Part shown: piece by piece, positions 24,263 through 58,039 of the stretch
How positions within the stretch are numbered: the stretch's first letter is position 1
Layout of the letters: every line of letters begins with the position of its first letter
From: Yuukianura sp. NJ FZ-2021
Taxonomy: Eukaryota
DNA length: 64,000 nt
Direction of reading: 5' to 3'
Assembly (NCBI GenBank): GCA_046563655.1
Contig: CM102286.1
Location: forward strand, 13,950,001 to 14,014,000
Made by a program: the position numbers and the translations under genes
The notes under the pieces: generated by a model
Told to the model about the DNA's origin: nothing
Seen by the model: the letters and a program-made list of their open reading frames with translations, nothing else
The model's database searches: none

Positions 24263-27200
24263 ATGGCGGACCTTATGGACATGCGATGGCTCGTCCGCGA
24301 CATTAATCAACGTGCGGTCGACGAAGTCAGAATCCAGCACATCTTTACTCCAGGATTACCCGACGAAATACGACGAGAGCGGATACGGCGACGAAAATTT
24401 GCACAAGCTGAGAGGTACAAAGGCGGTAAACTTCTAGAAATTTTGAAATGTTTGAACTTTTAAGTAGTTAGTATGAATCTACCCAATTTTCAGTCATATT
24501 CCATTCTACTTCCTGCTGGACATTGCTTACATCTGGTCCAGCTTCCTCTCAGTCGTAAGTTGTGCACTTAAGTTTTCAACATTCCAGAAAATTCAGGCAA
24601 ATTGCATATGAAATCGTTTTTACTATGGCAGGTCGTCGCTCTCATATATTTTTTGATGTTTCTGACGCTTTTGGGTTGGAAGCCTTCAATTGATTCCTTT
24701 GTTGTGCCACTTCACGCAGACGCGATTGCCCTCATGAATGCCCCACCTCCTACTTCAAGTTACGATGCTCCACCACTAGTGCCACCGACAGAAACTACTC
24801 CGACACCGCTTCCAAGAAATGAACATTTATATGAAAAGCTGATGCTGGAAGAAAAGGGCTACAACACGCACAATTGGGCTGCGTACTATCTCGTCCTTGG
24901 AGTCATTTTGTGTGGGATCAGCTGGTACAGCTACTTTGGTGCAGGGATTGTCGGTCGCCGTTATATTTACATCGTCGTAAGTTTCTTCTATGTAACTTTA
25001 ACTTAGTTAATTAATTAATCTAACTTTTGTTGTTTAAACAGTCGCTCTTTACTCACTTCGTCGTTCTCTTTGGTGAAGGCTATGCCGTTCTTTCCGCCTT
25101 CTCCAAGTTACCTAAAGCTTGTAACACCACGGAGTTTCGGGAACATATGATGAGTTACTTCATCTGGTACGGAATACTGTCACCACACATACTAAACCAT
25201 GGACATGAAGCCATGGTCAAGATGGACGCTGTACAAGGAGCTGTATGTCCACAACATTTTATGTTTTTACTTAAGTCCATGGCCAACAACCGAGAAATTT
25301 TCTTCAACCTACCCTAAATCCTCGCATATAGCGCGCGTAGTATCAGTGTGTTTTTTTTTTTCGTCCAAAAATCGTTTTCTGTAAACTACATCAATTTAAA
25401 ACGAAATAGGGATAAACCACAATCGTCATAAATTTCTGACCATGCGCAGTATGTGTGAGTGCGTGTTATAGACGAGGATTTCGGGTAATCCAATCAACAT
25501 AATTCCAAAAACGGTTGTTTTTGTTTAAATTCAGTTGGCCTGTTGTGGTGTTGACGGTTACAAGGACTACGAACACATTTTTGCCACTATAGGCGATCCA
25601 GCGTTCAACGATTCCTGGTATCCCACGGAAATTTTTCAAATGGAAGGTTATGGAACTTTTGACATTGAGTACTACAAAGAAAAAGGTCGGGAAATACGGC
25701 AAGTACCTCCTAGTTGCTGTACTCCATTTTGGCGCCCTAATGTGTACTGTGCCGAGGACCTTTTTACAATGGAACGAGAGTTGCCAAATAATACCATTGC
25801 AAAGGATCGGATCAATCCTCTCGTGAGTTTTTCAAAATTTGAGTTTCCCGGGTTCCAAATTTTGGCCAACTATGGATGGTGACTGATTTTTAGGGTTGTG
25901 TGGAAGCCGTTGGCCAAACATGTGACCGCATGGTTTACTTGTTGACGTATGGAATGCTAACAATTTTGTATTTTCGCGTCTTTCTGTGGCTGTTTAAACT
26001 TGTGCTGACTGGAGTTATTCTGCGATCGATGCACCTCATTATGACAACTCTATTTTCCGTTACGCGTGGAAACGCTCGGTTTGTCTACGACTACCGCCGA
26101 ACTCGTCCGGAAGAAGATCCATATAAAAAGGCCATCGGAGACTTTCGGCGTGGAGTTGTTCCGGAAGGCTGGGAAGAATTTGTAGAAAACCGGATCGAAG
26201 GAAGGAAAAAAGCGTTGCCGATTAGTGAACAGTTCACTGTTGGGCAATTGGCTGACAACGCTGCCCTTGAGGACAGATTGTACATGCACTTGATTCAAAA
26301 ATGGGTATGGATTTTCAAAATTAAAAAAAAAACTGCCTTTTTTTTTTTCGAAAAACTGATTTTTTAGAAAGGAGAGAAAGCACGTGCAGAAGGAAAAGAA
26401 ATTTATTTTGGCGTTGGTGTTGGAGAGGCATCGGACAAACGAGAGGCCGAGTTTCTGGAAGAACGTGGACATGGAAATAAGGAATTCCGGACAGCCGATA
26501 CGGCACTTTCCCGCTTAGCAACAATTGGAAATCGAATGCACAGGCCTGGTAAGACTAAGCTTATGCAAAGTTTAAAAAAAAAAACAAATTTTAAACGACA
26601 TTGTTTGTGCTAGACAAAACGTTTAGACGACCTCTAAAGCTTGCAAAAATGTCGCCAGAAAAGAGAGAAATTGAGAGACTCCGCCAATCTGCCACAGCAG
26701 AGCAACTGAAAAAAGAGCAAGAAGGAAGTTTTGCTGACGACGGTCAACCGATTGTGCCAATTCCGGAAGACGCGAGTGCCAGTCCACTGGACGTGTCACA
26801 GGAACCGGAATCTGAAGAACCTGAACAAGGAAAATGGAAAGAAAAGTTCAAAAAAGGTGTTCACTCTGTCATGGAAATTCTCGCTGAAAAAAAAGCTAGG
26901 GAGAACAAAATTGTAAGAACTTTTCAAAAAAAAAAATTCTTGTTAAATGATTCGGAATTTGTTCCAACTCTTTCTGTTTTGTAATTATCAAGCAACGTAT
27001 GCTGAAGAAACAAGAGCGAAAAGCCGAGAAGCGTGGACGAGCCAAGGACAAAGAAAAGGCAAAAGACAAAGAAAGAGCAAAAGACAAAGAAAAGGCAAAA
27101 GACAAAGAAAGGGCAAAAGACAAAGAAAAGGCAAAAGACAAAGACAAGTCCAAAGACAAAGACAAGCCCAAAGAGAAAGACAAACATAAGAAACGTCCAG

Positions 27201-28141
27201 CACATAGAACAGTATCCGGTCCAGTACAATTACCGGCGCCAATCAAACTACCAAAAAAGTTGCCGAAACTGCTGGAACTACCGTCGATACCTTCAATACC
27301 ATCGTTACCGGCACTTCCAGAGGAACCGAAACTGCTAAGAGGTGAAGAGAGGAAAAGAGGAAAAGATGAAGAACGCAAGGAACGAAAAGAACGAAAGCAG
27401 ACAAAGCCCGAAAAAGAAAAAGTTTCGGTTGATGACGCAAAGAAAAAAGTTGACGAAAAACAGGAAAAAGCTGACGAAAAACAGAGAAAAGTTGACGAAA
27501 AACGGAAAAAAGGAGATGAACAAGTTTCAAAATCTGCAGAAGACGTTCGGCCTAAAGAAAAAATCACACGCAAACGCAGAGACAAAACCGAACCTGCTCC
27601 CAAGGAAGCCGAACCGTCGAAACCGCCTACACCAAAACCGGAAGAAGCCCAACAAAAATCGGAAGTTGTCGAACCAAAGGTTGAAAAAGAGAAGAAAAAA
27701 CAGAAAACCGAGGCCATACCGAAACCTGTCGTTCCAAAACCGGAACGAGAACCGTCTCCTGAAGTTCCTACAACTGAAATACTGCCGCCGAAGAGGAAAC
27801 GTAGACGTAGAGAAGCTGCTGAAGGAGCGGCACGTGATACCACCAGTGCCACGACTCGACCACGAGAAAAGAAGTCACGACGCAAACGCACTACACGTCC
27901 AGCGTCACCTCCAACGCGTACTACCGTTTCACTGCCCATTATCAGATCAAAAGCCAGACAGGTAATGGGAAGCTCAAACTTTTACAAAATTTCTTATTTT
28001 TTTTTTTTTTTGAAATTTTGAAAAAAATTTTGTAAACTGTAGGAAAGGATTAAGCGAATCAAACCTGTGCCAATTGAAAAGCGAAAACCTTGGAATTACG
28101 GTGCACTAGGAAGTTCACACCCATCGCGTTACGTGATGTGA
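24263..28141 (+). CDS. Divergent tetraspanin-like membrane protein with a long Lys/Glu/Pro-rich C-terminal tail, multi-exon
   Basis: Hydrophobic TM segments, CCGVDGYKDY, VPPSCC and GC before the last TM (tetraspanin large-loop signature). The tail exons join in frame to TGA at 28139-28141; a single-gene model is inferred. Confidence 0.65.
27043..27185 (+). repeat. Coding 18-bp tandem repeat encoding (KDKEKA/KDKERA)n
   Basis: AAAGACAAAGAAAAGGCA-like units repeated, decaying into KDKDK. Confidence 0.85.
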
Positions 28142-28670
28142 ACGAGAGAAAACCAATTTTAAAACAAATTTTAAAAAAAAGTCTTAAAAAATAGTCAAAT
28201 GTGTCTCAAGTTGGTTTTTGGAGACACAAATTTTGTTAAGAAAGAAAAACTGCTTACACTGATAGGCTGTGATGACAAGTTTAATGCTGCAAAACTTATT
28301 CTTTATGGCGACTGCCAAACAGTTTCTCATAATCTCTAGTCTCCAAAACACCAACATCATGCCAAAAAATCAGATTTGCAGATTGATTTTCCCTTCTCTT
28401 GCGCCACTTCGCTTTTTTGAAAAATATTTTATGCCTTTTTTATTCTGCAACATGAAGTTTCAAGCTACAAAACTTTATTTCAGTTTCTTCCAAGAAAAAC
28501 CCGAAGTCAGAATAACTTCGATTTTCCTTGCGTCAAGTCAAGATTTCCGTCTTTTCAGGCATTCATCAAAGTTAAATTTGGTTCTGGTTTTTTGCAGCAT
28601 TCAATTCAATTGAAAAATTGAAATTTGAAAGCATTTTTCAAGTTCAGTGACAAATTTTCCTGATTTGACA

Positions 28671-31423
28671 ATGTCACTCTACAGCTCGTTGATTCTACTG
28701 CTTGTACTTTGTGAAAGTACAACAGTATTTTGTGAAACTGGACCAGATAGTGGTTTTAGCAACTCAAATTTTGAAATTTCAAATCAATCTTCAATTTTTG
28801 AAACGAAACAGCAGTTGCTCATTTCAAATGAAATGGTGGCCAAAGAGTTTCTGGACAAACTTGACAAAGAAGTGACTGAACAGTGTTCCAAATCAGCCTT
28901 CGCTGAATGGATTCATGCAACTGACATTACTCCCACGAACCGTGCAAACGCTGTAAAGAAACCAAACCCAAATTCTAAAATTCAAAATTGAAAACAATCT
29001 AAAATTGAAATTTGGTTTTAGGCAAAAGCTAGACTGGATTACATGAAATTCTGGAAACAGAAATGGAAGGAGAGTGAGCAGTTTGATTGGAGCAAGTTCG
29101 AAGATCCTTTAATCCGAAGACAGTTTAAACGCCTGTCTGTTTTGGGAACTCCCGCTTTGCCGGAAGAGGATTTGAAAAAGGCAAGTTTTTCAAAATTTTG
29201 AAATCTTCTCAAACAGCGTTTCAATTTTAAAAATAAAATTTAGTTCAATTCACTGAAACAAAAAATGGAAGGCGTCTACAGTACTGCAAGAATTTGCAAT
29301 CCTTCGAGCCTCAGTCAATGCAACCTAGCACTGGAGCCGGGTAATTCAAAATTCAAAGTTTTGATAACTCAAAAAAACGAAGTTTTTTTTCGAAATTTGT
29401 ATTTTAGAAATTACGGAGTTGATGATGTACAGCCGAAATGAAACGGAACTGAAAAGTGCTTGGGTTCAATGGCGTAGGGTGACAGGGAAAAAAATGCGAA
29501 AAGATTACGAAGCACTTGCGATAATCATGAGCGAAGTTGCACGAGTTAACAGTTAAGCCTTTCAAAAAAAAATTCTGAAATTTTCGTTTCTGAAAATGTT
29601 TTTTTAAATGTCTTTTTTAGAGTTTAGTAGTGTCGCTGCTTATGAAACTCGATCTTACGAAACTCCTCATTTTATTACCGAGTTGGAAAAGTTATGGTCT
29701 CAACTGGAACCGTTCTACCAGCAGTTACATGCCTACGTTCGTTTCAAGCTCGGTCAACGATACGGTACTGAGATCGTATCGTCATCCGAACCGATCCCAA
29801 GTCATCTCCTGGGCAACATGTGGGCCCAGTCGTGGGGTAATATCTTTGACCTGGTCGTTCCGTTTCCAAATGTTTCGAGTATCGATGCCACGCCGGCTCT
29901 TTTGGCCCAAAATGTCACGCCAACTAAAATGGCCAAACTTGCCGAAGAGTTTTTCGTGTCACTCGGCTTCCCGCGGCTACCCCAAGAGTTCTGGACGGGC
30001 TCTATACTGCAGAAACCCACCGACAAGGAAATGGTTTGTCATGCTTCAAGTTGGGACATGTGTGACCAAAAGAATTTTTGGTAATTTAAAAAAAAATCCA
30101 AAATTTTTGAATTTGAGATTTCGAAAATCTTTGCTCTTCAAGGATTAAACAATGTACGAGGATAAATATGGAGGATTTTGTGACTCTGCATCATGAAATG
30201 GGTCACACGATGTATCAAATTCAAGTAAGTTCAAAATTTTGTGTAAACATTTGAAAATCAAAATTTTGGAAATAAGTTGTTTTTGAAATCTCAGTACAAA
30301 TCTCAACCAAAAGTATTTCGAGATGGAGCTAATGCGGCTTTTCATGAGGCGATTGGAGACCTCATTGCTCTCTCAGTTCAAACGCCAAAACATCTTCAAA
30401 AAATCGGTTTTTTGAAAAAAGTTGAAGAGTCAAGAGAGGGAGATTTGAATCATTTGATGTTAATGGCATTAGAAAAAATTGCGTTTCTTCCTTTCGGCCT
30501 TCTTGTGGACAAGTGGAGATGGGGAGTGTTTGATGGAAACATTACTGCTGAAAACTACAATTGCGAATGGTGGAAGTTAAGGTACCAAATTTTTCAAAAA
30601 GATAAAAAATTTGAAAAACCAACTTTTTGAAAATGACTTGAAATTTTTAGAAATAAGTACCAGGGAGTGAGTCCTGCTGAACGGAGATCTGAAGATGACT
30701 TTGATCCCGGGTCAAAGTATCACGTTGCAGCCAACGTTGGGTATATACGGTAAGTATAATAATTAATAAAATAAATAATATAAATAGTTATATAAATGGT
30801 ATAATTAAGTATAATTATTTAGCTACTTTATCAGCACAATCATACAGTTCCAGTTCCATCATGGGCTGTGCAAAGTCGCTGGTCAATTTGACTCCACTGA
30901 TGAGACAAAACCACTTTATAAATGTGACATTTTTGGAAGTATGGAAGCAGGAGAGAAGCTCATGTAAATGAAAACCCAATTTGTTAAAAGAGTTTCACAT
31001 GTTTGTTGAAATTTTTCAAAATCTTTTGACTTTTGACTTTTTCCGTAGGAGAATGTTACAACTAGGGTCTTCCGTTCCATGGCCCGATGCCATGGAAATT
31101 GTCACTACACAAAGAGTTCTGGACGCTGGTCCAATTCTGGACTACTTCAAACCTTTAATCGAATGGCTTCTAAGTCAAAATGAACAGAACAATGTCACTG
31201 TTGGATGGACAATGCGTAACTTATCTACACAAAATTGTCAAATGTTCCCAAAAAGATTTTTGTTTTCAAAAATTCAATTTTGTTTTAATTTCTAGGCAAT
31301 CAATTGTGCTCCACCTCCATAAAGTCCAGCACAACCAAAAAATTCATCAGTTCGTATTTCATTATAGTCGAATTAGGTTTATTTTATGTTACCAAAAATT
31401 ATTTTCAGCACAAATTAATTTAA
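28671..31423 (+). CDS. Angiotensin-converting enzyme-like M2 metallopeptidase, single domain, signal peptide and hydrophobic C-tail
   Basis: [19 protein letters not shown], zinc motif [51 protein letters not shown]. Confidence 0.93.
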
Positions 31424-36757: not shown

Positions 36758-37139
36758 ATCAAACTCCATCTACAACATTAATCTCATCCAAACAATTCCA
36801 AAAAACGCAACATTATTCAAAAACTTAAAATTTTGTTAAAAAGAATTTTTTATGGAAAAATGGAATTTTGAGTTTTGAATTTTTCCGCTGCCATGGCACT
36901 GTATTGACCCACAAAAGCTTTTAGCTTTCATTCAACAATTTAAAAACGAGTTGGGGCAACTTGAGATTTTTTTTTCTTCAGTTGCGTTCGACGACTCTTA
37001 TCAAACAGTCGCTTTCCTTTGCTCTTCTCCCGCTTCAAATTTTGAATCTTCCCGAACTTTTGAGCCAAAAGTTTTGACTGCCGCCACGTCTCAGGTTACC
37101 CCAGAATCTCACCTCTCGCGTTCACTTGTTTGCTGAGTC

Positions 37140-37634
37140 ATGGCTTCCATGATGCTGTTGACCATCGGCTGCTTCTGGCTCGTCGTCACCATGACCAGCA
37201 CGTCTGCGCAGACGCTGGGTCTCGATTTGCACGAAATCGTTACACCAGCAGCGAAGTTCCGCTACACAGACGCCTTCGCAGATCGAACTTGCAGCGACGA
37301 CGAGAAAGAAGTTATGGAGAGACTTGTTCTTAACTGCAAGGAGTATACGCGGAGGTTCAACGGTGACAAGAGTGCCTTCCTTGGTTGGCTTCGTGACCAA
37401 CGGTACATGAATGGAAAATTTGAGTTGTTGCTTGAAGCAGAGGCAGCCATTGACCAGTGCTGCGGAATGCGGTCCTTCACTTGTAACTGTGACCGCATAA
37501 TGGGCAAATTCAAATGGTACCGCAGGGGAATTGACGATGGGGCTTGGTCCATGTCACTCCCATTCACGACGTTATTGGGATGCTGGATGCTGGGCTACTT
37601 CGCTCAACAAGGACTTATCCTCCCACGCAACTAA
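37140..37634 (+). CDS. Secreted/GPI-type small 6-Cys protein, family member 1 (164 aa, single exon)
   Basis: Signal peptide ending SA-QTLG; C-x14-C ... CC-x6-C-x-C; hydrophobic C-tail; paralogous to 38401-38904. Confidence 0.75.
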   Translation: MASMMLLTIGCFWLVVTMTSTSAQTLGLDLHEIVTPAAKFRYTDAFADRTCSDDEKEVMERLVLNCKEYTRRFNGDKSAFLGWLRDQRYMNGKFELLLEAEAAIDQCCGMRSFTCNCDRIMGKFKWYRRGIDDGAWSMSLPFTTLLGCWMLGYFAQQGLILPRN

Positions 37635-38400
37635 AAGTTCAAGTACACAAAGAAATTAGACGCTAGTTAAGTTAATTTGTTCAAGGTCAAGTTAATCAAT
37701 AGTTAATAGCTAAACAAGTTTAAATTATGTAAACCAAAATGTTAGACATTTATGCTACAAGTTACATAACTGTTTCATTACTTATCTTTAGATAGCATAA
37801 CATCATTACATACTAACATATGCCTGTAAATCTTAGGTTTTGATGTAAAACTATCGTGAATGTTATCAAACGTTTTTAGTTCTATTGTAAACGTTTTCTG
37901 AAAAAATAAATAAATAAAAAAGTTTATAAAAAAAATACTTGTCTATGATACTGCTTCAAAACTGTCTTTGAAACGAAATTAGCTTTTGGAAATTTTTGGA
38001 ATAATTTTGAAAGAAACACAAAAATAAAACGAGAATTTTAAAATAAGTTATAGTCGTAAAATTAGGCATTTTGAATTTTATGTGTCATGGCAACATAAGT
38101 GGCTCACATTTTCGTTATAATAAACTTACAAAAGAAAATGCTCAAGTTTTTCTATTTTTATGCACAAAAGTTATAAACATTTCTGTTACTTTTTGTGAAT
38201 CTCGTGATTCAATTCTCCCGCTTTTTTTAGTAACTTTGAATTTGATTGTTCATAGATGTCTGAGTTTTTTTGTAAAGCGTGAATCTTCCAGAACTTGGAC
38301 TGTGGCCTGCCAGTGTGCTCAAGAGTCACGCGACCATGAAACAGGCTACACCTCCTCCTGAACCGAAAATTTCCACTTTCCCGCTGAATTTGAACCTCAG

Positions 38401-38904
38401 ATGACTCAAATCCGAGTTTTCTGGAATGCTTGCCCTATTCGTTTCTGGTGGCTCATCTTCGTCATCCTGACTGAAACTAAAGCACAGACGCTTGGACCCG
38501 GTTTGGAAACAGATACTAAGACACCACCGTCCATTGTGTCCCTGAATTCAACGAAAGTCGGAGCAGAATGTACACCGGAAATGCATAGTACGTGGTACAG
38601 CCTCGGTCGATACTGCTATGAGATGTACTACAGTGGCAAAGATGTCAGCACCTTCGTCAATGACATCAGAGACAAACCGTACATGACATTCCGGGATCTT
38701 CTGGAAGCAGAGGCCATCGTCACCAATTGCTGCTACACGTATGCAATCGAATGCTCCTGTACCGGTATTGAAACGGTACTGAAACGGTTTCGTCGGTTTG
38801 AAGACGGCGGCAGTCGACTCCACCCCATACGCTTAACTACGTTACTCAGTCTCATAGTTTTGAGCAACCTGTTCTGGCAAGGTCAGCTAATTCGTCCACA
38901 TTAG
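38401..38904 (+). CDS. Secreted/GPI-type small 6-Cys protein, family member 2 (167 aa, single exon)
   Basis: Shares AQTLG, RD.(R/P)YM, LLEAEA, identical Cys spacing, DGG/DGA before the hydrophobic tail and a QG.LI.P terminus with member 1. Confidence 0.75.
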   Translation: MTQIRVFWNACPIRFWWLIFVILTETKAQTLGPGLETDTKTPPSIVSLNSTKVGAECTPEMHSTWYSLGRYCYEMYYSGKDVSTFVNDIRDKPYMTFRDLLEAEAIVTNCCYTYAIECSCTGIETVLKRFRRFEDGGSRLHPIRLTTLLSLIVLSNLFWQGQLIRPH

Positions 38905-39151: not shown

Positions 39152-41735
39152 CTAAACTTTTGCAAAATAAATTGCTCTGATGAGAATCCAGAGTTTTTTG
39201 GCTACCGAAACTGACGCTCTCTTTGGATAACCGTCAGCTTTTCTCAAAACTTTTCCAATGGCGCTGTAGATGTCAGTAGCAGCGATTACTCCAGGCTGCA
39301 TGCTGCGCGGTATCATTTGAATTCCCCTCTGAGCCCTTGACTTGTTTTCGTCCGCTAAATCCAAAATCCGTACCGACAATTTTTGAAGTACCGTTTCGCC
39401 GAGAGTCCACGGTTTCCTGTCAATCAAAGCTTGGAACTCGGTTTCGTTCATAAAGTCCTTCGGAACGTAGCAGCGTCCAAGCGTTTCACTGTCAGTGACA
39501 ATGTCACGAGCAATGTTTGTAAGTTGCAGGGCCACGCCCATTTCTCGGGCAGCTCGAATGACATCTTCGGGGTTAGGAGGTAGTTGCCGCGGGAAGTTGA
39601 CGAACCAATCACGACTCTCGTTGGCCGCCATGAAGGTGCAGAGGACTCCAACGCTACTGGCAACATACTCGGAGTACTCTACCAAATCTGCTTCGGTTTT
39701 GACAGTTCGACCAGCAATGTCCCACTCGTAACCTTCACAAAGTTCGTACAGCGGTTCGGCCGGAATTTGAAACGCGAGTCGACTCAAACTTCTAAATGCT
39801 GCCAATTCGTCACGAGATAAAATGCCTACAAAAGTAAAAGTATGATTAGCTAAGGTGTCTAAAAAGTTATTAAAAAATTAGGCGGGGGAAAGATGACGTC
39901 ATCAGGTATAGGAATTGTGACGTCATCACCTAGAGGAATTCTGACGTCATCGGGAGAGTGGTAGCACGTTATCAGGTAGAGGAATTATGGCGTCTTCGGG
40001 TAGAGGAATTCTGACGTCATCAGGAGAGTGGTATGACGTTATCAGGTAGAGGAATTATGACGTCATCGGGAGAGGAATATGACGTTACCAGGTAGAGGAA
40101 TTGTGACGTCATCAGCAGAGGAAATGTGACGTCATAAAGTACAAAAAAGTACCTTCGTAGTAATTCCAGTCGACCAGAACTTTTTTTGAGTCCGAATTTT
40201 CGTAGTCCACAGAATATTTGACTTGTGAATTTTGTTTTCGTCCCGCAAATAATTTGTCCAAAAAATTTCGAATCATTTTCAATTTTTCCTGCTTCTGGTC
40301 CTGGGTCAAGCAGAGGTCATCCACCATATCGTCCGTGACACGACAAAAGGCATAGAGTACGCCGAGATCTTGGCGTAGTGCAGGCGGAAACACATGACTA
40401 GCGGCCCAAAATGACTTGGATGCTATATGCAGCACGTCAAGTGTCCGACGCAAGTCTTCGATTCGTTCCGACTCCAGTGTGGATTCGAGTCGAAAGAAAG
40501 CGCACAACATTTTGAAGAAAACGTTTCCATGGAACTGTTCTGGAAAATTGTGGAGAACTGCATTGGACTTTTCGACTGCGCAGAAGCCTAGAACAACCAA
40601 GGCGCTGACCGTGAAGAAGAAAAATGCTTCTTCTATGGGCATCTTTTCACTTAAGTAGATTCCAACGACCGCTTTTGGGCTGACTGTCCATACGTCTTCG
40701 TAGATTGCTAAGTTGTCTGCATAGGCCAAGTACAGTGATGGTGTAACTATGCCAACCAACACACCCCAGCGACGCTGAACGACGTAATTTCCAACTCCGA
40801 TCCAGAGAAACGCAAAAATCGGAAACGTCCAGCCAATGACGCTGCAAAAGTAGAACGGCGGCGTTCCCGGAACTTCATAAATTTTCAACAACGAAAAATG
40901 CTCAAAATTTTTTTAGATTTAAAAAAATCCGTAACATATAATTTGGTGAAAAGTAAAGTGAAAAGGTTAAAGTGAAAAAAGGAAAGTGAAATTGCCAAAG
41001 TAATAAAAGATCGTCACAGAATGGAAAGCTCAAAAAGTGAAAAGATCAAAATGCCAAAATGACGAATTTTTGATGGTCGATTTTTTTTTAAACTTTATAA
41101 CTTTTAGAATTTCGGTCATTTTGACATTTTAATCTTATCACGTTTTGACTTTTTCAAAATGTGATCTTTTTCTACTTTGACCATTTCACTTTTGACTTTT
41201 CCATGTTTGATCTTTTCACTATTGACTTTGTTGCGTTTGAACTTTTGAGTTTTGACCAAATTACATGGAATCTTAAACTCTTAAGCTGTCTACTCAATTT
41301 TTTGTTAATTTTACCTGTGTTGAACCAGGAAATGACGGAGGCTATCATCATGAGCACTGCAGGGACCCAGCGAATGATGTTCGCCTTCACCGGAGTGACA
41401 TCCAGACATAGCCCAGGGAGTGACCAGCGGAGACACAGAATTGACCAGAACATGACCATGACCGTTTGGATGACAAAGAAAAAGTACTCTTCGACCGGGA
41501 GAAATCCAATGTTAAACAGACTCGCTTCATCTGCAAATGACCAAGCGCCTGACCAGACCATCAAATTGTCCCACGGTGTGGTGTAGATCAGCGCTAACGC
41601 TGAAATTATCAACGTCGTCACCCAAAGACTGGCGTTCATGAACGGCCTCACGATGAGCCAAAGGACAAAAGTCAATGGAATTGTGTACACAACATGGAAT
41701 GACAGGTAGGTCATATCCTCAGAAGTTCTCGCCAT
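39152..41735 (-). CDS. carRP: Bifunctional lycopene cyclase/phytoene synthase of fungal type (CarRP/CarRA/Al-2-like), about 604 aa; exons 41315-41735, 40153-40872, 39152-39825
   Basis: Cyclase repeats YTTPWDN, PVEEYFFFVIQT, PIEEAFFF; synthase ASKSF, LYAFCRVTDDMVDD, YSEYVASSVG, MGVALQLTNIARDIVTDSETLGRCYVP; spliced ORF of 1815 nt with no internal stops. Confidence 0.96.
39890..40136. repeat. Intronic minisatellite, 11 units of 22-24 bp, each centred on a CRE-like core
   Basis: Consensus about GGTAGAGGAATT(G/C/A)TGACGTCATC; perfect TGACGTCA at 39894, 39918, 39942, 40012, 40058, 40104, 40127. Confidence 0.9.
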
Positions 41736-42287
41736 TTTCGAAATTTGACAAATCCAATGTTCCTGTCCAACCAAAAAAAAAAGTTTTTCCAAAATTTTGA
41801 ATTTTTTCAATGAAACTTTTTTGTTACCAAAATTAAACTCCAGTCTGCTCCGCTGTCTGGATGTTCGTGACTAATCTCTGAACTTTGACAAAAACTAAGT
41901 TGGTTCATTTTATTACTCAACTTTTGTCTACTTTTTTAGAAACCAGACAAGTCTTTTAAAATACTAATTTTTTTGTTGTTCGTATCCGGCTTGACGAAAC
42001 ACTAAAGAAATCACGGCAAATCACGTGCCACTTGAAGGGTTTCAAAATCAAATTTTCCAAAGAAGAAGCCGAATGAAAACTTTGTTCTCTTCGACATTAT
42101 CAAAAGTCACACAGAAGCTTGACAGACACAAGATGCTTGTCAATCAGTTGCTGACGTGACTTTTGACCTGGATTGTCTTCCACGTGCAGAGGTCACAAGT
42201 CTGGGCAGATAAAGTTACTGACTAAACTGCCACCAAAACTTAATTCAAAGTTGAAGTAGACTTTGGTCTAAAGAGAGCTCAAAAGTC
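41736..42287. promoter_or_regulatory. Shared bidirectional promoter region of carRP and carB (552 bp between start codons)
   Basis: Divergent ATGs at 41735 (-) and 42288 (+); CACGTG E-boxes at 42022 and 42181, TGACGT at 42152. Confidence 0.7.
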
Positions 42288-44168
42288 ATGAAAATTTTGA
42301 TTGTTGGAGCTGGAGTTGGTGGGACAGCGGTGGCTGCTCGATTGGCCAAACAAGGTCACGAGGTCAAAGTTTACGAAAAAAATGGATTTCAAGGCGGACG
42401 GTGCTCCCTTATACACCATGAGGGACATAGGTTTGATCAGGTAAAAAAATTGAATTTTTTTTTTGAAAAATTAATTCGGTATAAGATTTTTCTTAATTTT
42501 TGAAAAACGAAATCTTTAAAATACTTTCTTAACTTTTGAAAAAAAGGGACCGAGTTTACTCCTGATGTTGGAACTTTTTGAACAAACGTTTGCCGATCTC
42601 GGTCTAAACTTGCATGAAGAACTTGAACTTTTGAAATGCACGCCAAATTACAAAGTTCATTTTCATGATGGGAAGGTCATTGAACTTGGATCTGACCTGC
42701 CTGCTCTGCTGCACGAAATTCGAAAATATGAACCAGAGGAGCCAGAACAAAAAACTTTAGCATTTTTGAAAGAAACTGAGCAACATTATAGATACAGCGT
42801 TGCTCATGCGCTGGGAAACAACTTCAATTCTATTTGGGATGTGATTCGTCCGCACCTCGTTGAGGTTCCTTTTCGACTGCACATTTGGGACACGGTGTAC
42901 AACCGAGTTTCAAAATATTTCCAATCCGAGTACCTCCGAAGAGCTTTTACTTTTCAAACAATGTACCTCGGCATGTCACCTTATGATGCCCCTGCGCCGT
43001 ACAATTTGCTTCAGGTAAAAAAATTTTTGCTAAAAGTTAAAATTCATTCTGTTAAAAATTAAAATTTGTTTTGTTAAAAGTTAAAATTTTGTTAAAAGTT
43101 TTTCAATTTCTTTAGTACACGGAAATGGCCGGTGGAATTTGGTACCCAAAAGGCGGATTTACCGAAGTTGTGCGAGTTTTGGAACAAATTGCCAAAAAAT
43201 ATGGCGCCACTTTCAATTACAATTCGGAAGTGACCAAGGTCAATGTCAACCAATCAAAAGAGGTCACAGGGGTCACGGTGGGCGGAGTCACGGAAGACGC
43301 TGATCTTGTCATCTGCAATGCCGATTTGGTCTACGCTTACAACAACTTGCTTCCAGAAGTAAGAAAAATTTTAACCCAAAAAAAAGTTCTAAAAGTTTTG
43401 GCCTTTTTTGACATTTTAAAATTTTTACTTTACCGACAGACTAAATATGGAAAATCGCTTGGAGCCAATGCAAAGTTAACTTGTTCCTCAATTTCATTTT
43501 ACTGGAGCATGCGTAGTGTCGTCAAAAGCCTATCTACGCATAACATCTTTTTGGCCAAAGACTACAAACCGTCATTTGACGACATCTTCCAAGGCCACAC
43601 TCTGCCTGCCGAACCGTCATTTTACGTCAACGTGCCGTCAAGAATCGACCCCACGGCGGCTCCACCCGGGAAAGACACTATAGTAGTTCTCGTTCCTACT
43701 GGGCATCTTCTGAACCAATCAGAAACCTCGACGGACTCTGACATCGATACACTCGTTTCCCGTGCAAGAAGTCATGTTCTAAATAGACTCGAGCGGGAAC
43801 TTGGAATTTCAAAGTTCCAAGATCTGATTGAGCACGAAATTGTGAACGACCCGAGAGATTGGCAGAGAAAATTCAACTTGTGGCAAGGGAGTATCCTTGG
43901 TTTGAGTCACAACGTTAGTCAAGTCCTTGCATTTAGACCGAAAACAAGAAGCGCCGAATTCAAAAATTTGTATTTTGTTGGCGCTTCAACTCAACCGGGC
44001 ACTGGAGTTCCACTGGTTCTATGCAGTGCTAAATTTGTAGCAGAACAAGTTCAAGCCGATTTAGTCAAAAAGACAACCCAAACTGATCGGAAGTTTGATC
44101 AAATTCCGCTCAGATTGATCCTAGTTTTAATCATTTTGATCATTCTGTTCACGAGTTTTGTTGTATAA
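42288..44168 (+). CDS. carB: Phytoene desaturase, CrtI/fungal CarB (Al-1) type, about 530 aa; exons 42288-42440, 42547-43014, 43116-43358, 43440-44168
   Basis: FAD motif GAGVGG...EKN...GGRCS, HRFDQGPSL, FTFQTMYLGMSP, GIWYPKGG, NADLVYAYNNLL, PSFYVNVPSRIDPTAAP, GSILGLSH, FVGASTQPGTGVP, and a C-terminal TM tail as in fungal CarB. Confidence 0.97.
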
Positions 44169-48839: not shown

Positions 48840-51317
48840 ATGGGAGGAGTCAGTTCTGCAATTGACGTTGTTCAAAAAGCAACAACGTTTGGGATGGGTG
48901 TTGTTCGTGAAAGACGACTTGACTATGTCACGGGACAGGATTCTATTAGTGATAAGTCTCTTAACAATTGCCTTTGCTGTAATTTGAACACCAATTTCAC
49001 ACTGGAGTTGGCGACGCATGCGCAGAATGAAGATGTTGATAGTACTGCACCAGTTGAAGACATTGGCAGTACGTTGACTGACGATGTTGACGACATTACG
49101 ACGCTTGTGCAAAGCCGTGAAGGTTATGATGCCTCACTTGACGTATTTTCACACAAAAATGTAAGTTTAAAATACAAAGTCACTTTTTTGCTTTTCACTG
49201 CATCTTTTTCAAATCATAAAAGCTTTTTTTGGTTTGATTTTTTGAAAATTTTGAATTGGTTGTGCGCAGGTCATGACCTCGATTTTGGGAAATTTAGAAT
49301 TCGAAGACTTGCTTCATCTTCGCCGCGTCAACAAAATTTTGAACAAAGCAGTTTGCAATTGCCTGAGATGCAGACGAAGTCACGAAACTGTTTTGGATTC
49401 TGAACGACGTGTTTCCACGTTTCTCAAAATTTTGAAAAATGTTGGCTGTTGCCATCCTTTTGGTGACCTGGTCATTGACCTTTGGGAAATTTCTTTGGAA
49501 ACTGTACTTGACCTGTCGCGTGACCTCTGGTGGGTCACAGGCCTCAAACTGTTTGGAACAGCATCCACTTCTGCACAACCACCTCTACGCCAGTTCATTC
49601 TCAAAGACATTTCAACCAAAGTTGCAGTTTTACTCAACGGAACTTCGAATATCGAATCACTTTGGATCAAAACCGATTTTGAAATTTCAATCACCGGAAT
49701 TTTGGAATTACTTCTATCAAAACAATTTCCAAAACTGAGTTGTCTCATGCTAAACACGATTTACGCGGGAGATTCAAATTTCGGTGGCGGTTTTCTTGAA
49801 AGTGTGATGCGTCGTAGTCCAAATTTGACTTCACTTGGACTCATTCTACCTGAAAATGGCGACGACAAATTTTTGGAAGCTCTTATTCCTACTTTTGGAA
49901 TTCAAAAATCTGCTTCAGTGCTGAACATTTCTTTAGCCACGCCCCTTTCTTTGTCAAACGTTGAAACACTCCTACGCAAGTCCATTACTCTCACGTCTCT
50001 CCGAATTCGGATTTCAGAGTTCGGAAACGAACAGTTCCGAAACAACTTTCATTTGTGGTTGAGCAGCCAATCACAATCGCTTGTGACCTTCGCTTTAGCA
50101 CTGGAGACAGACACAACTTTTTTTGGCACATGGAACTTACCTGCTCTTACGCAACTGGAAGTTCTAAGTATTCTGATTACCGGTACACCGTCCAGTATCA
50201 TTCAGCCATTCGATTCCGACCAATTTCCAAAACTGAGTTCATTTGCTTATGTTCATTCGGGTGGAAATTTGGACTTGTTCAACTTCGGAATTTACAGAAC
50301 TGTTACATCAATTGGAATTTCCGGAAAAAATGGACCCCTTGATCCGAATATTGCCGAACATCTTCCGAATCTTCAACATGTTACACTCTGCGGTGTTTCA
50401 CGACAGCATCTGACAACAATTCTATCAAAATTTACTTCACTTTTAGAACTGGTGCTAATTTTTGAAGAAGGAGAAAACGACCTCTGGCGGGAAGTCACAG
50501 GCGAATACCCAGAATGCTGGGAAGATTTGTTCCAAGAAGTTTTTGGAAACGTGGAGGTCAACGACACTTTGGACGAAGAGGTCAATGACCTTTTGGAAAC
50601 AGAGGTCAATGACCTCGCAGCTGACCTTCATACTCCAGAGGCCAATGACCTTGACCTTTTATCTCCAGAGGTCAATGACTTTGCAGTTGACCTTTTCACT
50701 CTGGAAGTCAATGACCTTGACCTTTTCCCTCCAGAGGTTAACGACCTTATAGTTGACCTTTTGGCTCCAGAGGTCAACGACTCTTTTGACGCAGAGTGGA
50801 ATTCCATTATGGAGTGTAACGCTGAACCCATTGACGCTTGCGCTGAAGTTGAAAATGCCATTTTTCAAGAGTCACTGGAAGGGCTGGAAGAAACGACCAA
50901 AATGTTTTACGGCTTGGGAGATGCTCCGTTACCCTCATTTGGAAATATGAAATGTATTTTTTCAAAATTTCAAAAATTTTTAATTATAAGTTAGAATTTA
51001 TAAATTGATAACCTAAAAATTAAAAATTTCGAATATTTTGTGTTTTAGGTTTGGAGTATTTGAAATTTGTGGGATGGAATGCCAGTGCCCTCGGTGGATT
51101 GATTCATATGAGTTCAAATCAAAAGTTGTCTCCACTTGGACACTTTCAAATTGAACTTCCACCAAATCGTGAAGTATACATTTCAAATAAGTTCCATTTC
51201 GAAAATGAAATTTTGAAAGAATCTTAACATTTAAAATTGTATGTTCAATGGTAGCTTCCGCCTGGTTCTCTGGAATTGCTCAAGTCTTACCACAAAAAAG
51301 TTCTACTACAGCCTTGA
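48840..51317 (+). CDS. F-box plus LRR-like protein with an acidic EVND repeat; exons about 48840-49160, 49270-50953, 51049-51173, 51255-51317
   Basis: F-box-like VMTSILGNLEFEDLLHLRRVNKILN; LxxLxL repeats (FPKLSCLML, PNLTSLGL, LPALTQLEVLSI, LPNLQHVTL); N-terminal MG. Confidence 0.75.
50551..50790 (+). repeat. Coding repeat of 8 E(V/A)ND units built on the palindrome AGGTCAATGACCT
   Basis: Perfect AGGTCAATGACCT at 50579 and 50603; one-mismatch copies at 50639, 50669, 50705. Confidence 0.85.
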
Positions 51318-51728: not shown

Positions 51729-53316
51729 ATGAAAAACTGTCACTTTCTTTCAAAGTCAATTTTAAAAGTATTGACACTGGTCGTCGTGGCGACGTCGCTA
51801 GTAGGAGGAGCGATGGCAAGTGACGATAAGGTGTAGTAGGGGACCATTTGCGTCAAATCCTAAGTCTTACATGCGGTCAAGCTGGGTCAAGGTCAAGGGT
51901 CAAGGGTTACCGGAGTACTACTAACATTATGTTAGTTATAACTTGTTGAAATGCGATGAAAGGCGATGTAGAAATTGCTTAGGTTAACTAGCTAGAATTG
52001 CCTGCCATTGCATTAGGACGGACGCACGAAATTTGAAAATTTCTTTATGTATGAGAAGCGCTAGTTCATTTGTTTGGTTGGGTTAAGGATTTGACGCAAG
52101 TGGTTGTGTTTCTAGGAATTTGTGAGGAAGGAACCTTACGGTAAGTTTTCCATTATATTTAGATTTATATAATATTAATAAATTAATAAAATGTAATATG
52201 TTATTCGGAAAATATCTAGGAAGTCAAGACTGTTGTGCGGTAATGCTGGAAGGGAACAAGGGTAATGGGGTCTACAAAGTGTATCCGTACATCAACAATA
52301 CATTGAATGGAGTTAAAGTAATTACTATATATAATATAAATAATAATCTAAAATCTAATATAATTAATAAAGTAATTAATAGTGATGAATTAGTGGCGAA
52401 ATACAATGAATTACGAATTAGATTCAATTACAACCATGTTCTCGCAGGTCTACTGCGACCTTCAAACTCTGGGTGGTGGGTGGACAGTAATTTTAAGGCG
52501 CGAAGAAGTATCGGGCCCAATTACGCGCTTTAACCGCGGATGGGCAGACTACGTCTCTGGGTTTGGATTTTTGAGCTACTCTCATTGGCTGGGTATACAA
52601 TTTACCGTAAAGTTTCAAGTAAAAGCCATTGTTTTAAAAAATTTTGATGTTGTTTGAACAGGTTTGGAAACAATATCAGCTCTAACTAGCGGTCAAGACC
52701 AAGAACTTCGAGCGGAAATGACAAATTGGGACGGAGAAGCTCTCACTTCTGCATATAAAACATTTTATGTTGGTGGAAATCGTACCGACTATCACGTGGT
52801 TCCTGGAGTTCCTTACAAGGACCATACCGGTAAGATTTAAGGAAAAAAATGCAAAATTTTAGTTTTCAATTTTTGAATTTCATGGATATTTCAGGTGATA
52901 TTTTCCCGACATCCAAATCCGTTTCAATGAGTTCTTTTTCTTCGTCTTCTTCTTCCATCATTGGCTTTTCAACGTTCGATCATGAATTTAAAAATGGCGC
53001 TCATGGTTTTCGATCTGGTTGTGCCACTCAACGGAATGCTGCATGGTGGTACAATGACAAGTGCATGAGCGTGGTAAAATTTTAAAATATCTTATTATAT
53101 TGTACTTATTTAAGTGTAATTGAAAATATTTTACTTGATATGTACTTGAAGCCAAACCTTAATGGTTTGTACATAGCAGAGGGTGGTAATGCTTCAGAGG
53201 CGATCGTTTGGGAAGTTGGATCCAAAAAACATCCGCTCAAATTTGTTGAAATTAAAATCCGAAATCGAAATTTCCCAAAAGGATGTGCAAAACCAAAGCC
53301 CAAAAAAACTGAATAA
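51729..53316 (+). CDS. Secreted fibrinogen-related (FReD/FREP) protein, multi-exon
   Basis: Signal peptide; VYCDLQTLGGGWTVILRR, FNRGWADYVSGFG, HWLGLE, FSTFD, AAWWY..C..PNLNGLY, EIKIR. Confidence 0.88.
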
Positions 53317-55031: not shown

Positions 55032-57259
55032 ATGGACGGAGAAGAAAGAATGACAGGAACATTTCCACTATCGGTGTTGATGGGACGTGAGTTGGGGTTT
55101 GGCATGGGGTCAACCAAGTCAGCATTGAAGTACAAACAGAAATTGACAAAGTTGACTTATCGAGAGGAGGATCGAATGGTCGTATCTCCAATGAATCCGA
55201 TTTATTCTATGGAGTTTTGCCCCATTACGACACAACCCAAAATTTTGGCTGTCAGTGATGAAATTGGAGGAGTCACGTTGATTGATACACAAACAAATTT
55301 TAAATCCAAAATTGTCACACGTAAAACTCAAATCAAAGAAACGTTAATTAACCAAGGTTCACCTTTTTTACGAATTTTCATTGCTCTTGATAGGTCACGA
55401 GTGTCATACATGTTCGCTATATAGCGTGACATGGTCAATTCCGACTCCTAATCTTCTTGCAACTGGAGCAAGTGATCAAACAGTTTGTGTATGGGATGCA
55501 AACACGTTTCAAAAAGTGCGATGTTATCATGGTCACTCCAAAACAGTTAGACGAGTCAGATTTCATCCTACCGACTCTGGTAAAAACAGCAATTAATTTC
55601 ATCTATCTATCGCATACGATGTTCGTAAACTTGTGAATGCTTATTGCTGTTTCTGAAACAGGCAAAATTGGGAGTTGCAGCCGCGACGGAAGTATTCTTT
55701 TATGGGATTTGCGCTGCTCAGGAGTTGATCCTATGAACATTATAGCTTGTGCTCATAGACAAAAACATCCGGGTAACTTCAACTCTTCATTTACTTTTAG
55801 ATCGGTTTCATTTTTATTCCCGGGCTGGTTTTCATTTTGTGTGATCGTAGGTATTTCGCAAGGTCGGAAGAAAGGTCATAAGAACAGTCCGCAAATCTCT
55901 ACTCCCGTGACAGACTTCTTATTTATGGACGACAATACCCTGATTTCTTGTGGAGCCACTGATTCGTTAGTTATTTTATTTGATATAACATCAATTTAAG
56001 TATTTGAACTCTACAATGTTCAATGTTTGATTTACATAGGCAAATTAAGTTCTGGGATATTCGGAAAACATACCAGTATTTGCAAAAAGTTGAACCAGTT
56101 CGTCAGCTTGACTACGATGTGGCCAACTGCACTGGCTACTCCTCCATGACACTGGACAGTTACGGGAATCTCTACATTTCTACTGCCAAGGACGACATTA
56201 TTCGATTTCAAGTTTACAATGACTCTAATACTCAGCCCGGTACAGACGAAAAATTGAAAAAACTTGCCCAATTGATTATTATTCCAACTTGAATTCACAA
56301 TATTCTGACTATTTGGTTTCATCTGTTCTCTAGATTCAATTTTTAAGCGACCATCATCTGATTACAGCATCAACATTGGACTGAGTGATGACGGAAGATA
56401 CTTGGTGTCTGGTTCTGTCACTCCTTTTGCCTGTATTTGGGATACTTGGGACAAGAGTACGCAGTTACCATTTGTCCAATTGGAAGGAACTCGTAATGGA
56501 GTATTTTCTACTCCTTGTGCCTTGTTTTCTCCCAATGATCCACTCAAAGTTGTAACTGGCTCGGATGATTCAAGTTTGACCATATGGAGACTCAATATGA
56601 ATGGAAACAACTCAACAACAGGTATTTACGAAAGCGGAACGTCCGAAGACATTCCGTTGGCACCATTTCAAGACATCAATCTGCCAGAAAAGAGGTTCAT
56701 ACCCAAACATCACCGCAGATCATTGACTTTAACTCCTGTGGACCGTTCATACTTCACTGATCTTCCGAATTTTGTCATGGACGGACAGTTACCGCATGTT
56801 GCCAGTACCACTGGACGAAGAGTTAGCAAGTCTCATACCTGGTTGGCCAATTTCAGTCTTCCAAAACCATCCAAAGTCCCTATAAAGAAAACAATCAAGT
56901 TGAAGCGAAAAGTGGTTCCGGCTTCTTCCAGTAGTTCCGAACTGGGAACTGAAAGTGACTCTGCCGTCGTCACTCCCGTGACGAAACTTCCCCCGAAGAG
57001 TCGCTCTAGCACTGGACCACCTAAGAAACGTCAACGTTTGCGTGGAGGAACACCAAGTTCAAAGTCCAGTCGTGAAAAGAGAAAAAGTCTCAAGAAGGCA
57101 ATGGCAGAGTGTAACATGGAAAACGATCGACTGGAGTCCCAGTGTCCCTCGATTCTCAAATATTTTAGTCCAGTTGCATCACCACAAACACTCCAATCTG
57201 GACCACCGCTACGGGATATCCACCTTTCAGAATTCGATACTTCCGAAACTACTATTTAA
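55032..57259 (+). CDS. DTL: Denticleless/Cdt2 WD40 substrate receptor of CRL4, multi-exon
   Basis: WD40 repeats (LATGASDQTVCVWD, SCSRDGSILLWDLRC, ISCGATDS.IKFWDIRK, VVTGSDDSSLTIWR), LPNFVMDGQLPH and a C-terminal PIP-like SILKYF. Confidence 0.88.
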
Positions 57260-57989: not shown

Positions 57990-58005
57990 AGCAGAGTGGC
58001 GCAGT

Positions 58006-58039
<34 letters not shown>

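Follow-up and report, generated by a model that had tools for sequence, protein, structure and literature searches.

A probable laterally acquired fungal-type carotenoid gene pair in an animal chromosome, on a deep branch beside the arthropod copies

The 64-kb stretch of DNA analysed here, which we will call the window, carries at positions 39152-44168 two genes that we read as a genuine, chromosomally integrated and laterally acquired fungal-type carotenoid pair of an animal, most likely active, which in protein trees would form a deep branch of its own beside the arthropod copies. We give this reading a probability of about three in four. To our knowledge, carotenoid-making animals provide the most familiar instance of a metabolic pathway acquired from fungi, and this locus would be a fifth example of what has become a textbook case of horizontal gene transfer (HGT) in animals. 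It leaves the accepted view of the pathway's workings as it was. What an intact pair at equal distance from every known copy would bring is a new calibration point for the dating and the counting of the transfers.

The locus and its gene models

The two genes are transcribed divergently (Table 1), and in the gene models both outer limits of the pair are the last base of a stop codon. An earlier note on this DNA had described two spliced reading frames of about 604 and 530 residues, divergent and 552 bp apart, and this description proved exact to the base, the exon limits of both genes being reproduced collinearly by tblastn with mite and Mucor/Cokeromyces queries (in the case of carRP, Dinothrombium P0260 and Cokeromyces P0267). 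The start of the carRP-like gene (carRP hereafter) could also be the second ATG, at 41714, in which case the protein would have 597 residues. Its two introns, of 442 and 327 nt, are both in phase 1 and bounded by GT..AG, as are the three introns of the carB-like gene (carB), of 106, 101 and 81 nt. The carB protein ends in a hydrophobic tail. No further copy of either gene was found in the 64-kb window by tblastn with mite and Mucor/Cokeromyces homologues.

Table 1. Features of the carotenoid pair and of its surroundings in the window
Feature	Position	Strand	Details and evidence
PGAP3/Per1 gene	19930-20911		Pfam
ACE/Peptidase_M2 gene	28629-31292		Pfam; 60-70% identity to animal ACE
carRP-like gene, fused lycopene cyclase/phytoene synthase	39152..41735	minus	3 exons, 1815 nt, 604 aa
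carRP exon 3, remaining phytoene synthase with DIVTD	39152..39825	minus	674 nt including stop; SQS_PSY E = 2.6e-35, profile positions 73-260 of 263; motif aligned
24-nt tandem array, about 10 copies, in carRP intron 2	39893..40135	.	Tandem Repeats Finder
carRP exon 2, second cyclase half domain, linker and phytoene synthase start with DDMVD	40153..40872	minus	720 nt; CarR_dom_SF 59.7 bits; SQS_PSY profile positions 4-63
carRP exon 1, first cyclase half domain, PVEE at residue 80	41315..41735	minus	421 nt; CarR_dom_SF 67.8 bits; motif aligned
Shared 5' spacer between start codons	41736..42287	.	552 nt; start codons 41735 (minus) and 42288 (plus); GC 0.357
carB-like gene, CrtI-type phytoene desaturase	42288..44168	plus	4 exons, 1593 nt, 530 aa
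carB exon 1, FAD/NAD Rossmann fold, GAGVGG	42288..42440	plus	NAD_binding_8 E = 3.5e-12; crtI_fam 51.3 bits, profile positions 2-48 of 504; motif aligned
carB exon 2	42547..43014	plus	crtI_fam 107.2 bits, profile positions 50-201
carB exon 3, GGIWYPKGGF	43116..43358	plus	crtI_fam 54.3 bits, profile positions 204-283; motif aligned
carB exon 4, C-terminal half with conserved NLYFVGASTQPGTGVP block	43440..44168	plus	includes stop; crtI_fam 163 bits, profile positions 301-500; motif aligned
Fibrinogen_C gene	52394-53082		Pfam
WD40 exons, DTL-like by position and sequence only	55032-57256		Pfam WD40

Domains and conserved sites

The domain profiles agree with the proposal, also made in the earlier note, that the pair is of fungal type and that a CrtI-type desaturase is joined in it by a cyclase/synthase fusion. 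At the N-terminus of carRP, TIGR03462 (CarR) is matched twice, each time above its cut-off of 39.4 bits, and both P-x-E-E cyclase motifs are kept in the alignment with homologues. The Pfam family SQS_PSY follows, split between exon 2 and exon 3. The synthase part has its two Asp-rich motifs, DDMVD and DIVTD, at conserved columns of the alignment, and the PDB matches for exon 3 are CrtM (8is6) and PSY (5iys). One reading frame joins these domains, exon 2 running from the second cyclase half into the beginning of the synthase.

The carB exons 1-4 match TIGR02734 (crtI_fam) collinearly, and their scores add up to 376 bits (cut-off 238), a simple sum that is only rough because each exon was scored alone. 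This protein also matches NAD_binding_8/Amino_oxidase in Pfam and CrtI in the PDB (4rep, 4dgk), and its GxGxxG motif, GAGVGG, is aligned to invariant columns. Residues 464-479 form the C-terminal block N-L-Y-F-V-G-A-S-T-x-P-G-T-G-V-P, whose columns vary little or not at all among 98 homologues and which presumably corresponds to a named PROSITE motif. Among these 98 homologues, 131 columns are at least 95% invariant and carB keeps 128 of them; the named controls from functional lineages keep 123-129 of 129-132 such columns. For carRP, the figure is 36 of the 38 columns at least 95% invariant among 51 homologues, and the two substitutions, Y to F and I to V, are conservative. In these alignments, the invariant sites of both proteins are kept to the same degree as in homologues of lineages whose genes are known to function.

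Chromosomal setting

The pair is integrated in an animal genome, with introns and codon usage of the host type and animal genes on both sides, the linkage being that of the assembly. The claim that the genes are intact and spliced, with AT-rich introns like those of their neighbours, is borne out by the open frames and by the five GT..AG introns, whose GC content is 0.15-0.42 versus 0.44-0.48 in the exons. The GC3 values of the pair are 0.43 and 0.53 and those of the neighbours range over 0.30-0.55; the RSCU correlation is 0.74 between the pair and neighbouring exons and 0.78 from neighbour to neighbour. On the side of carRP there is a gene within 0.3 kb (ORF 38362-38901), and on that of carB one at about 4.7 kb. 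The genes would have been resident in the host for a long time, as their spliceosomal introns and host codon preferences suggest.

As for the flanking genes named in the earlier note, ACE, FREP (Fibrinogen_C) and PGAP3 are recovered by Pfam and DTL stands by position and sequence only, a search with the DTL-like exons having matched generic WD40 proteins only, just as comparisons of the ACE protein did not tell animal phyla apart; tetraspanin and F-box/LRR found no Pfam match among the window flanks. The other neighbours in the window are DENN, DHHC and PTGR-like genes, and the 579-aa ORF at 49255-50991 matched no Pfam family at E <= 0.001.

Five DNA runs, which belong to 2 studies and carry 2 organism codes, contain 31-mers sampled from the 5-kb stretch, at shares of 0.30-0.68. 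One of these runs may be the source of the sequence.

Phylogenetic position

Over its full length, carB is 52-59% identical to every homologue, with 55-59% for Mucorales and 52-59% for arthropods. In a tree of 99 rows, it falls within a set made of all 16 named arthropod rows and 5 unnamed rows (SH-aLRT 96), the sister of which is formed by 29 Mucoromycota rows. A more careful tree of 39 rows gives 86/75 for the group of arthropods plus the window and 100/99 for Mucoromycota, and the former is split three ways, into the window protein, Tetranychoidea (100/100) and a branch of trombidids, midges and aphids (96/92). The branch leading to carB is long (0.78-0.83 changes per site). To place it as sister to 12 Mucoromycota rows costs 7.1 lnL and is borderline rejected by the AU test (p = 0.043); neither a placement with Tetranychoidea (p = 0.44) nor one with trombidids, midges and aphids (p = 0.18) is rejected.

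The carRP tree was built with one representative per 50% cluster under the LG+G4 model, only two of its arthropod rows being named, and in it carRP groups with Dinothrombium, Contarinia, Cokeromyces and one unnamed row (support 86). The best match of carRP is Dinothrombium, at 39-41% identity. Both proteins belong to the Mucoromycota/arthropod branch of the fungal families, and both trees concur with the earlier view that Mucoromycota are the nearest fungal relatives.

By these trees, carB would join the arthropod copies basally, apart from the fully supported clades of spider mites and flat mites, of gall midges and sciarids, and of aphids and adelgids, and apart from the two velvet-mite copies. 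Such a deep branch of its own, outside the known carrier clades, makes it likely that the host belongs to a lineage absent among the annotated carriers. The host is thus most likely an animal lineage of this kind, and probably an arthropod, although this last term is taken from the tree position of the transferred genes alone and is circular in that respect. A narrower reading, which we hold only tentatively, is that the host belongs to a lineage without published carotenoid synthesis of its own (for instance a springtail, as guessed in the earlier note, some other small invertebrate living in soil, or a non-prostigmatan mite), with the pair at the base of all arthropod copies. All data would also agree with a host from an unsampled family in an order of known carriers, such as a further prostigmatan mite, and the locus would then represent the vertical inheritance of a known acquisition. 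More generally, the position of the pair may go back to common ancestry, to exchange among arthropods, or to several captures from one and the same lineage of fungi.

Comparison with the known carriers

The carotenoid genes of aphids were reportedly described by Moran and Jarvik in 2010 (cited in PMC5636080). As carriers, the relevant passages of PMC10016063 and PMC5636080 name no groups beyond aphids with their relatives, gall midges, and spider and trombidid mites.

In spider mites (Tetranychus urticae tetur01g11270 and the fusions; Tetranychoidea including Brevipalpus), the same two families are found, likewise of fungal origin, with Mucoromycota as sister, and nuclear in an animal. The window carB is 56-57% identical to the proteins of Brevipalpus and to P0003, a sister of Brevipalpus that clusters at 90% identity with the T. 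urticae phytoene desaturase, and the Tetranychoidea clade forms without it. T. urticae is described as having three desaturase and two fusion genes (PMC12135272), as against one of each in our 64 kb. According to the parts of PMC12135272 and PMC6275457 that deal with them, these spider-mite genes control body colour, diapause and probably light perception via vitamin A, and their knock-out or knock-down leads to albinism and loss of diapause.

Aphids, adelgids and phylloxerids likewise have both genes from fungi, the cyclase/synthase fusion and the desaturase, beside conserved host genes and with introns gained in the animal. Their genes differ from ours in sequence (52-59% identity for carB, the aphid clade at 100/100 leaving the window out) and in structure: the cyclase/synthase exons of aphids and phylloxerids are given as 913, 479-482 and 426 nt, versus 421, 720 and 674 nt in the window, and their desaturase as having one intron, versus three here at different positions (exon and intron data in PMC5636080). 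The trombidids Dinothrombium tinctorium and Leptotrombidium deliense provide the best named match of carRP, and their carB homologues, at 58-59%, are among the best; twelve fusion copies are reported for Dinothrombium and two for Leptotrombidium in the passage concerned of PMC6275457, compared with one in the 64 kb. Gall midges and sciarids (Sitodiplosis, Contarinia, Pseudolycoriella) would belong to the same arthropod clade, and the Contarinia carRP falls in the small group of ours, but their carB proteins (54-57% identity) form a clade at 100/100 from which the window is excluded.

The carB/carRP (carRA) unit of Mucorales, the sister group in both trees, consists of adjacent, divergently transcribed genes (as described in PMC10141606), and the likeness to this layout pointed out in the earlier note is seen in the start codons of the window pair, which lie head to head. 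Unlike that unit, the window genes are in an animal chromosome, use host codons and fall outside the Mucoromycota clade, and the carB protein, at 530 aa versus mostly 565-610 aa, is without roughly 40-60 extra residues of most Mucorales proteins.

Proposed pathway

The acquired pathway is probably functional. From the known roles of the gene families, the phytoene-synthase domain at the C-terminus of the fusion would make phytoene out of the geranylgeranyl diphosphate of the host; four (possibly five) double bonds would then be added by the FAD-dependent CrtI-type desaturase to give lycopene or 3,4-didehydrolycopene, the ends of which would be cyclised by the two N-terminal CarR half domains of the fusion to give gamma- and then beta-carotene. 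If the host is a new lineage, a pigment independent of the diet and a supply of retinoids are predicted there.

Alternative explanations

The earlier note had suggested an independent acquisition. This is right in the weaker sense that carB nests in no sampled carrier clade, and finds no support in the trees, where carB groups with the arthropod copies. An independent new transfer, in which the block would come directly from a Mucoromycota-like fungus and the grouping with arthropods would be due to long-branch or compositional attraction, is in our opinion unlikely. Both the cost of placing the window with Mucoromycota and the support for the arthropod set in the 99-row tree count against it, and the best carRP match is a mite and not a fungus, even though the long carB branch lies in no known carrier clade, the arthropod-plus-window group reaches only 86/75 in the careful tree, and the identity to Mucorales is as high as that to arthropods. 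Intron positions unlike those of aphids and phylloxerids (PMC5636080) also speak in its favour, as does the fact that three independent events from related donors are presented as accepted in the relevant part of PMC10016063. All these results are also compatible with a capture of its own from the unsampled lineage that served the other arthropods as donor. Should the pair instead be basal and its host a new lineage, a fifth carrier lineage would be added, and the locus would bear on the choice between one early entry, a spread between arthropods and a repeated capture from one fungal lineage; it gains interest if the host lineage has no record of these genes.

Contaminants are described in the pertinent section of PMC7003083 as frequent among the HGT candidates of arthropod assemblies, and the physical linkage of our pair comes from the assembly alone, so that the genes could in principle be those of a fungus, or of a mite or aphid eaten by or cohabiting with the animal, misjoined to its DNA. 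This we consider highly improbable, as the 64 kb are continuous with no N, the codon usage, GC3 and AT-rich GT..AG introns match those of the neighbours, other genes are close by on both sides, and the words of the stretch recur in 5 runs of 2 studies. Moreover, identity to database proteins does not exceed 59%, and therefore no known fungus, aphid or mite is the source. It is somewhat less far-fetched, but still improbable, that the integrated pair makes no carotenoids and is silent or reused (for phytoene only, for a non-cyclised product or for retinoid supply only). Indeed, one of the two spider-mite cyclase/synthase paralogues is reported to have no colour effect on knock-down (PMC12135272), but both window genes are single copy there and intact, with invariant sites as conserved as in lineages of proven function, the motifs of all three catalytic modules are kept, and a total of 1134 open codons is not expected of a decaying gene.

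The spacer and the intron repeat

The 552-nt spacer is presumed to be a bidirectional promoter and, as in Mucorales, would drive the two genes in opposite directions. Two of the window's six CACGTG sites fall within it. In carRP intron 2, each unit of the 24-nt array carries TGACGTCA or a near copy, and the array contains seven of the nine TGACGTCA sites of the window, the number expected by chance in all 64 kb being 0.94.

The carotenoid gene pair and its products

The pair is composed of a fused lycopene cyclase/phytoene synthase gene (carRP) and of a CrtI-type phytoene desaturase gene (carB), which face each other head-to-head. The limits that the earlier note had set for it, 39152 and 44168, proved exact, each being the final base of a stop codon, and the divergent layout that it had claimed holds as well, with 552 nt between the facing start codons. 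The spliced carB frame is 1593 nt long and encodes 530 aa, and its three introns (106, 101 and 81 nt) are all bordered by GT..AG. That of carRP is 1815 nt long for 604 aa, with two GT..AG introns (442 and 327 nt), both in phase 1. A further in-frame ATG of carRP, at 41714, is where the homologues and the cyclase profile start, so the protein may be 597 aa long. The exon limits of both genes were recovered collinearly by tblastn with Dinothrombium and Mucor/Cokeromyces proteins, and the same searches found no additional copy or fragment of either gene in the window. The coordinates of the features are collected in the table.

Coordinates of the carotenoid genes and of the other features of the window
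Feature	Position	Strand	Basis
PTGR-like zinc-type dehydrogenase, tandem copies	3-323, 1446-2331	-	Pfam ADH_N_2/ADH_zinc_N
Region of positive GC skew	8000-16000
DENN-domain gene	16767-18095		Pfam
PGAP3/Per1	19930-20911		Pfam
Lys/Glu/Asp/Pro-rich open frame	26951-28018	+
Angiotensin-converting-enzyme (ACE) gene	28629-31292		Pfam
Paralogous single-exon ORFs	37137-37631, 38362-38901	+
carRP, exons 1 to 3	41735-41315, 40872-40153, 39825-39152	-
24-nt tandem array, carRP intron 2	39893-40135
Spacer between carRP and carB	41736-42287
CACGTG sites in the spacer	42022-42027, 42181-42186
carB, exons 1 to 4	42288-42440, 42547-43014, 43116-43358, 43440-44168	+
carB intron 3	43359-43439	+
ORF running through carB intron 3	43116-44168	+
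Single-exon ORF of 579 aa	49255-50991	+
Fibrinogen-domain gene	52394-53082		Pfam
WD40 exons	55032-57256		Pfam
tRNA-Met (CAT), between the WD40 and DHHC genes	57989-58064	+	ARAGORN
DHHC gene	58832-59185		Pfam

The fusion described in the earlier note is found within a single carRP polypeptide, which carries two lycopene-cyclase half domains (TIGR03462, 67.8 and 59.7 bits for a cut-off of 39.4) and the Pfam SQS_PSY domain (E = 2.6e-35), which exon 2 matches over profile positions 4-63 and exon 3 over 73-260 of 263. In particular, exon 2 runs from the second cyclase half into the beginning of the synthase, which places the junction inside one polypeptide. The CrtI-type assignment of carB is likewise borne out, as the phytoene-desaturase family profile is matched from 2 to 500 of 504, collinearly across the four exons, and among solved structures the protein matches CrtI 4dgk and 4rep. 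When carB is aligned with 98 homologues, 128 of the 131 columns of at least 95% invariance are kept; the corresponding count is 123-129 of 129-132 in six named controls (mites, a midge, an aphid and Mucor). For carRP, aligned with 51 homologues, the figure is 36 of 38, both differences being conservative. The motifs are intact, namely the FAD-binding GAGVGG and the C-terminal CrtI block of carB, and both P-x-E-E and both Asp-rich motifs of carRP. Judged by the sequence, the three catalytic modules are all under constraint, and the enzymes are probably active.

The third carB intron is in frame and stop-free, and its retention in an isoform would add 27 residues.

Relationships of the two genes

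When the last carB exon was searched against the protein database, nothing near-identical came up; the leading named matches (53-61% over this exon) belong to aphids, adelgids, a sciarid, gall midges, trombidid mites and Brevipalpus, with Mucorales next. At full length, carB shares 52-59% identity with every homologue. In a tree of 99 rows, it falls within a set that takes in all 16 named arthropod rows plus 5 unnamed ones (SH-aLRT 96), and whose sister group consists of 29 Mucoromycota rows. A more careful tree of 39 rows was built under a PMSF mixture model (support given as ultrafast bootstrap/SH-aLRT), in which the arthropods and the window form a group (86/75) beside the Mucoromycota (100/99). 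This group is split in three ways, between the window, Brevipalpus with P0003 (100/100), and the trombidids, midges and aphids (96/92). The second of these clades is Tetranychoidea, since the P0003 row and the Tetranychus urticae phytoene desaturase fall into one cluster at 90%.

The alternative placements of carB were weighed by AU tests. Joining the window to Tetranychoidea (p = 0.44) or to the trombidid, midge and aphid group (p = 0.18) is not rejected, and joining it to the Mucoromycota, 7.1 lnL units worse, is borderline rejected (p = 0.043). For carRP, Dinothrombium was the top match (39%, and 41% at full length) when exon 2 was used in an exhaustive profile search. In a quick LG+G4 tree of 52 representatives, the window is grouped with Dinothrombium, the gall midge Contarinia, the mucoralean Cokeromyces and one unnamed row (support 86), and chytrid, blastocladian and Dikarya sequences are placed outside this group of five. 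The two genes thus agree, both being of the Mucoromycota/arthropod type and on a deep branch of their own.

Two other placements were observed in the carB comparison. The parasitoid wasp of aphids Aphidius gifuensis has three annotated phytoene desaturases (P0021, P0023 and P0027) on one 25-Mb contig, which are sister to all aphid and adelgid copies, the main aphid cluster P0006 included (100/100); they could reflect a transfer from aphid to parasitoid, or contamination. The copy of the sciarid fly Pseudolycoriella hygida (P0007) falls inside the gall-midge clade, which suggests that the midge acquisition predates the Cecidomyiidae.

Gene arrangement in known carriers

In aphids and mites too, the two genes diverge from a shared upstream region. 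The layout of the window matches that of the fungal pair, which diverges from a common upstream region according to an excerpt of PMC10141606, but it is at odds with the term 'tail-to-tail' that a passage of PMC5636080 applies to the fungal and arthropod arrangement. The gene structures were compared with those of aphids and phylloxerids. There, according to PMC5636080, the cyclase/synthase exons measure 913, 479-482 and 426 nt, and the desaturase has a single intron, whereas the carRP exons of the window measure 421, 720 and 674 nt and carB has three introns. Given these differences, the carRP introns cannot be held in common with these insects, and of the three carB introns one at most can be.

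Probable integration in the chromosome

The window has 64 kb of sequence with zero N, and the pair is like its neighbours in composition. Its genes have a GC content of 0.44 and 0.48, and a GC3 of 0.43 and 0.53 that compares with 0.30-0.55 in nine neighbouring exons. Their relative synonymous codon usage correlates with that of the neighbours at r 0.74, and the two halves of the neighbour set with each other at 0.78. The short AT-rich introns reported in the earlier note were found again, with a GC content of 0.15-0.25 in the three carB introns. Words of the 5-kb stretch are present in five DNA runs (two studies, two organism codes; none is RNA) at shares of 0.30-0.68, and one of these runs may be the source. 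That the pair owes its presence to contamination or to a chimeric join is, in our estimation, highly improbable.

The flanks were examined by a Pfam scan that took in every stop-to-stop ORF of at least 110 aa, almost all those of 62-109 aa, and 150 out of 406 in the 42-61 aa range. It agrees with the ACE-like and fibrinogen-domain neighbours that had been proposed. The gene called DTL stands as far as its WD40 exons are concerned, but a search with them returned 19 matches, generic WD40 only. The tetraspanin, F-box and LRR domains named in the initial description did not come out of the window ORFs scanned, and no arthropod-specific domain did either. Rfam at the gathering threshold found one tRNA and nothing else in the window, with no arthropod-specific RNA.

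Host lineage

The ACE gene is of little guidance: one exon matches 120 animal ACEs at 54-70% identity, fish being highest, and the summed tblastn scores of 12 ACEs (molluscs, insects, Daphnia, an oribatid mite, a hemichordate and vertebrates) range from 368 to 530, a taxonomic pattern being absent. To call the host an arthropod would be to follow solely the companions of the transferred genes in the tree, and the springtail suggested in the earlier note is a candidate host. An excerpt of PMC10016063 gives as carriers only aphids and their relatives, gall midges, spider mites and trombidid mites. The database includes proteins of aphid relatives, cecidomyiids, sciarids, tetranychoids and trombidids, all at 59% identity or less, and a host belonging to one of these groups (for the trombidids, one close to the sequenced species) is very unlikely. 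In full-text searches that covered mainly open-access journals, no report of these genes was found for springtails, oribatid mites, bdelloid rotifers or tardigrades. The mechanism and the gene families are textbook matter, and the lineage is apparently unrecorded as a carrier and equidistant from all known copies.

Proposed pathway and regulation

Following the named families, the synthase domain of carRP would convert two host GGPP into phytoene, which the carB desaturase would bring to lycopene or 3,4-didehydrolycopene, and the cyclase domains of carRP would then yield gamma-carotene and finally beta-carotene. Spider mites that lack the homologous desaturase show albinism and a diapause block, as stated in excerpts of PMC6275457 and PMC12135272, and by analogy colour, photoprotection and retinoid supply are plausible uses of carotenoids here.

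We propose that the spacer may act as a bidirectional promoter. It contains two of the six CACGTG sites (E-box) of the window, a possible host-type regulatory input; this motif is not enriched window-wide (6 observed vs 9.4 expected). The array in carRP intron 2 has about 10 copies, each unit with the palindrome TGACGTCA or a near copy. It holds 7 of the 9 exact sites of the window, for which 0.94 would be expected by chance window-wide. CRE-like binding sites may be clustered here, or the array may simply be a minisatellite.

Other features of the window

Adjoining the 3' end of carRP, the two paralogous ORFs (34% identity, E = 7e-17) each have hydrophobic residues at both the N-terminal stretch and the C-terminus, as well as conserved cysteines, and belong to no Pfam family. 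The ORF of 579 aa has an F-box-like start and C-terminal 'EVNDL'-type repeats; it has no Pfam match at E <= 0.001, so the 'F-box/LRR' label is left unconfirmed. Lys, Glu, Asp and Pro are extremely abundant in the 356-aa frame at 26951-28018, which contains KDKEKAKDKER repeats and for which no family was found; at the same place, the AT skew is 0.58 and frames are open on both strands. Finally, the 8-16 kb region has a strong positive GC skew (0.17-0.43 per kb). It was discarded as a coding region: its ORFs look non-coding, Pfam recognises no coding sequence in it, and tandem repeats are absent. A long intron or a minus-strand non-coding transcript may lie there.
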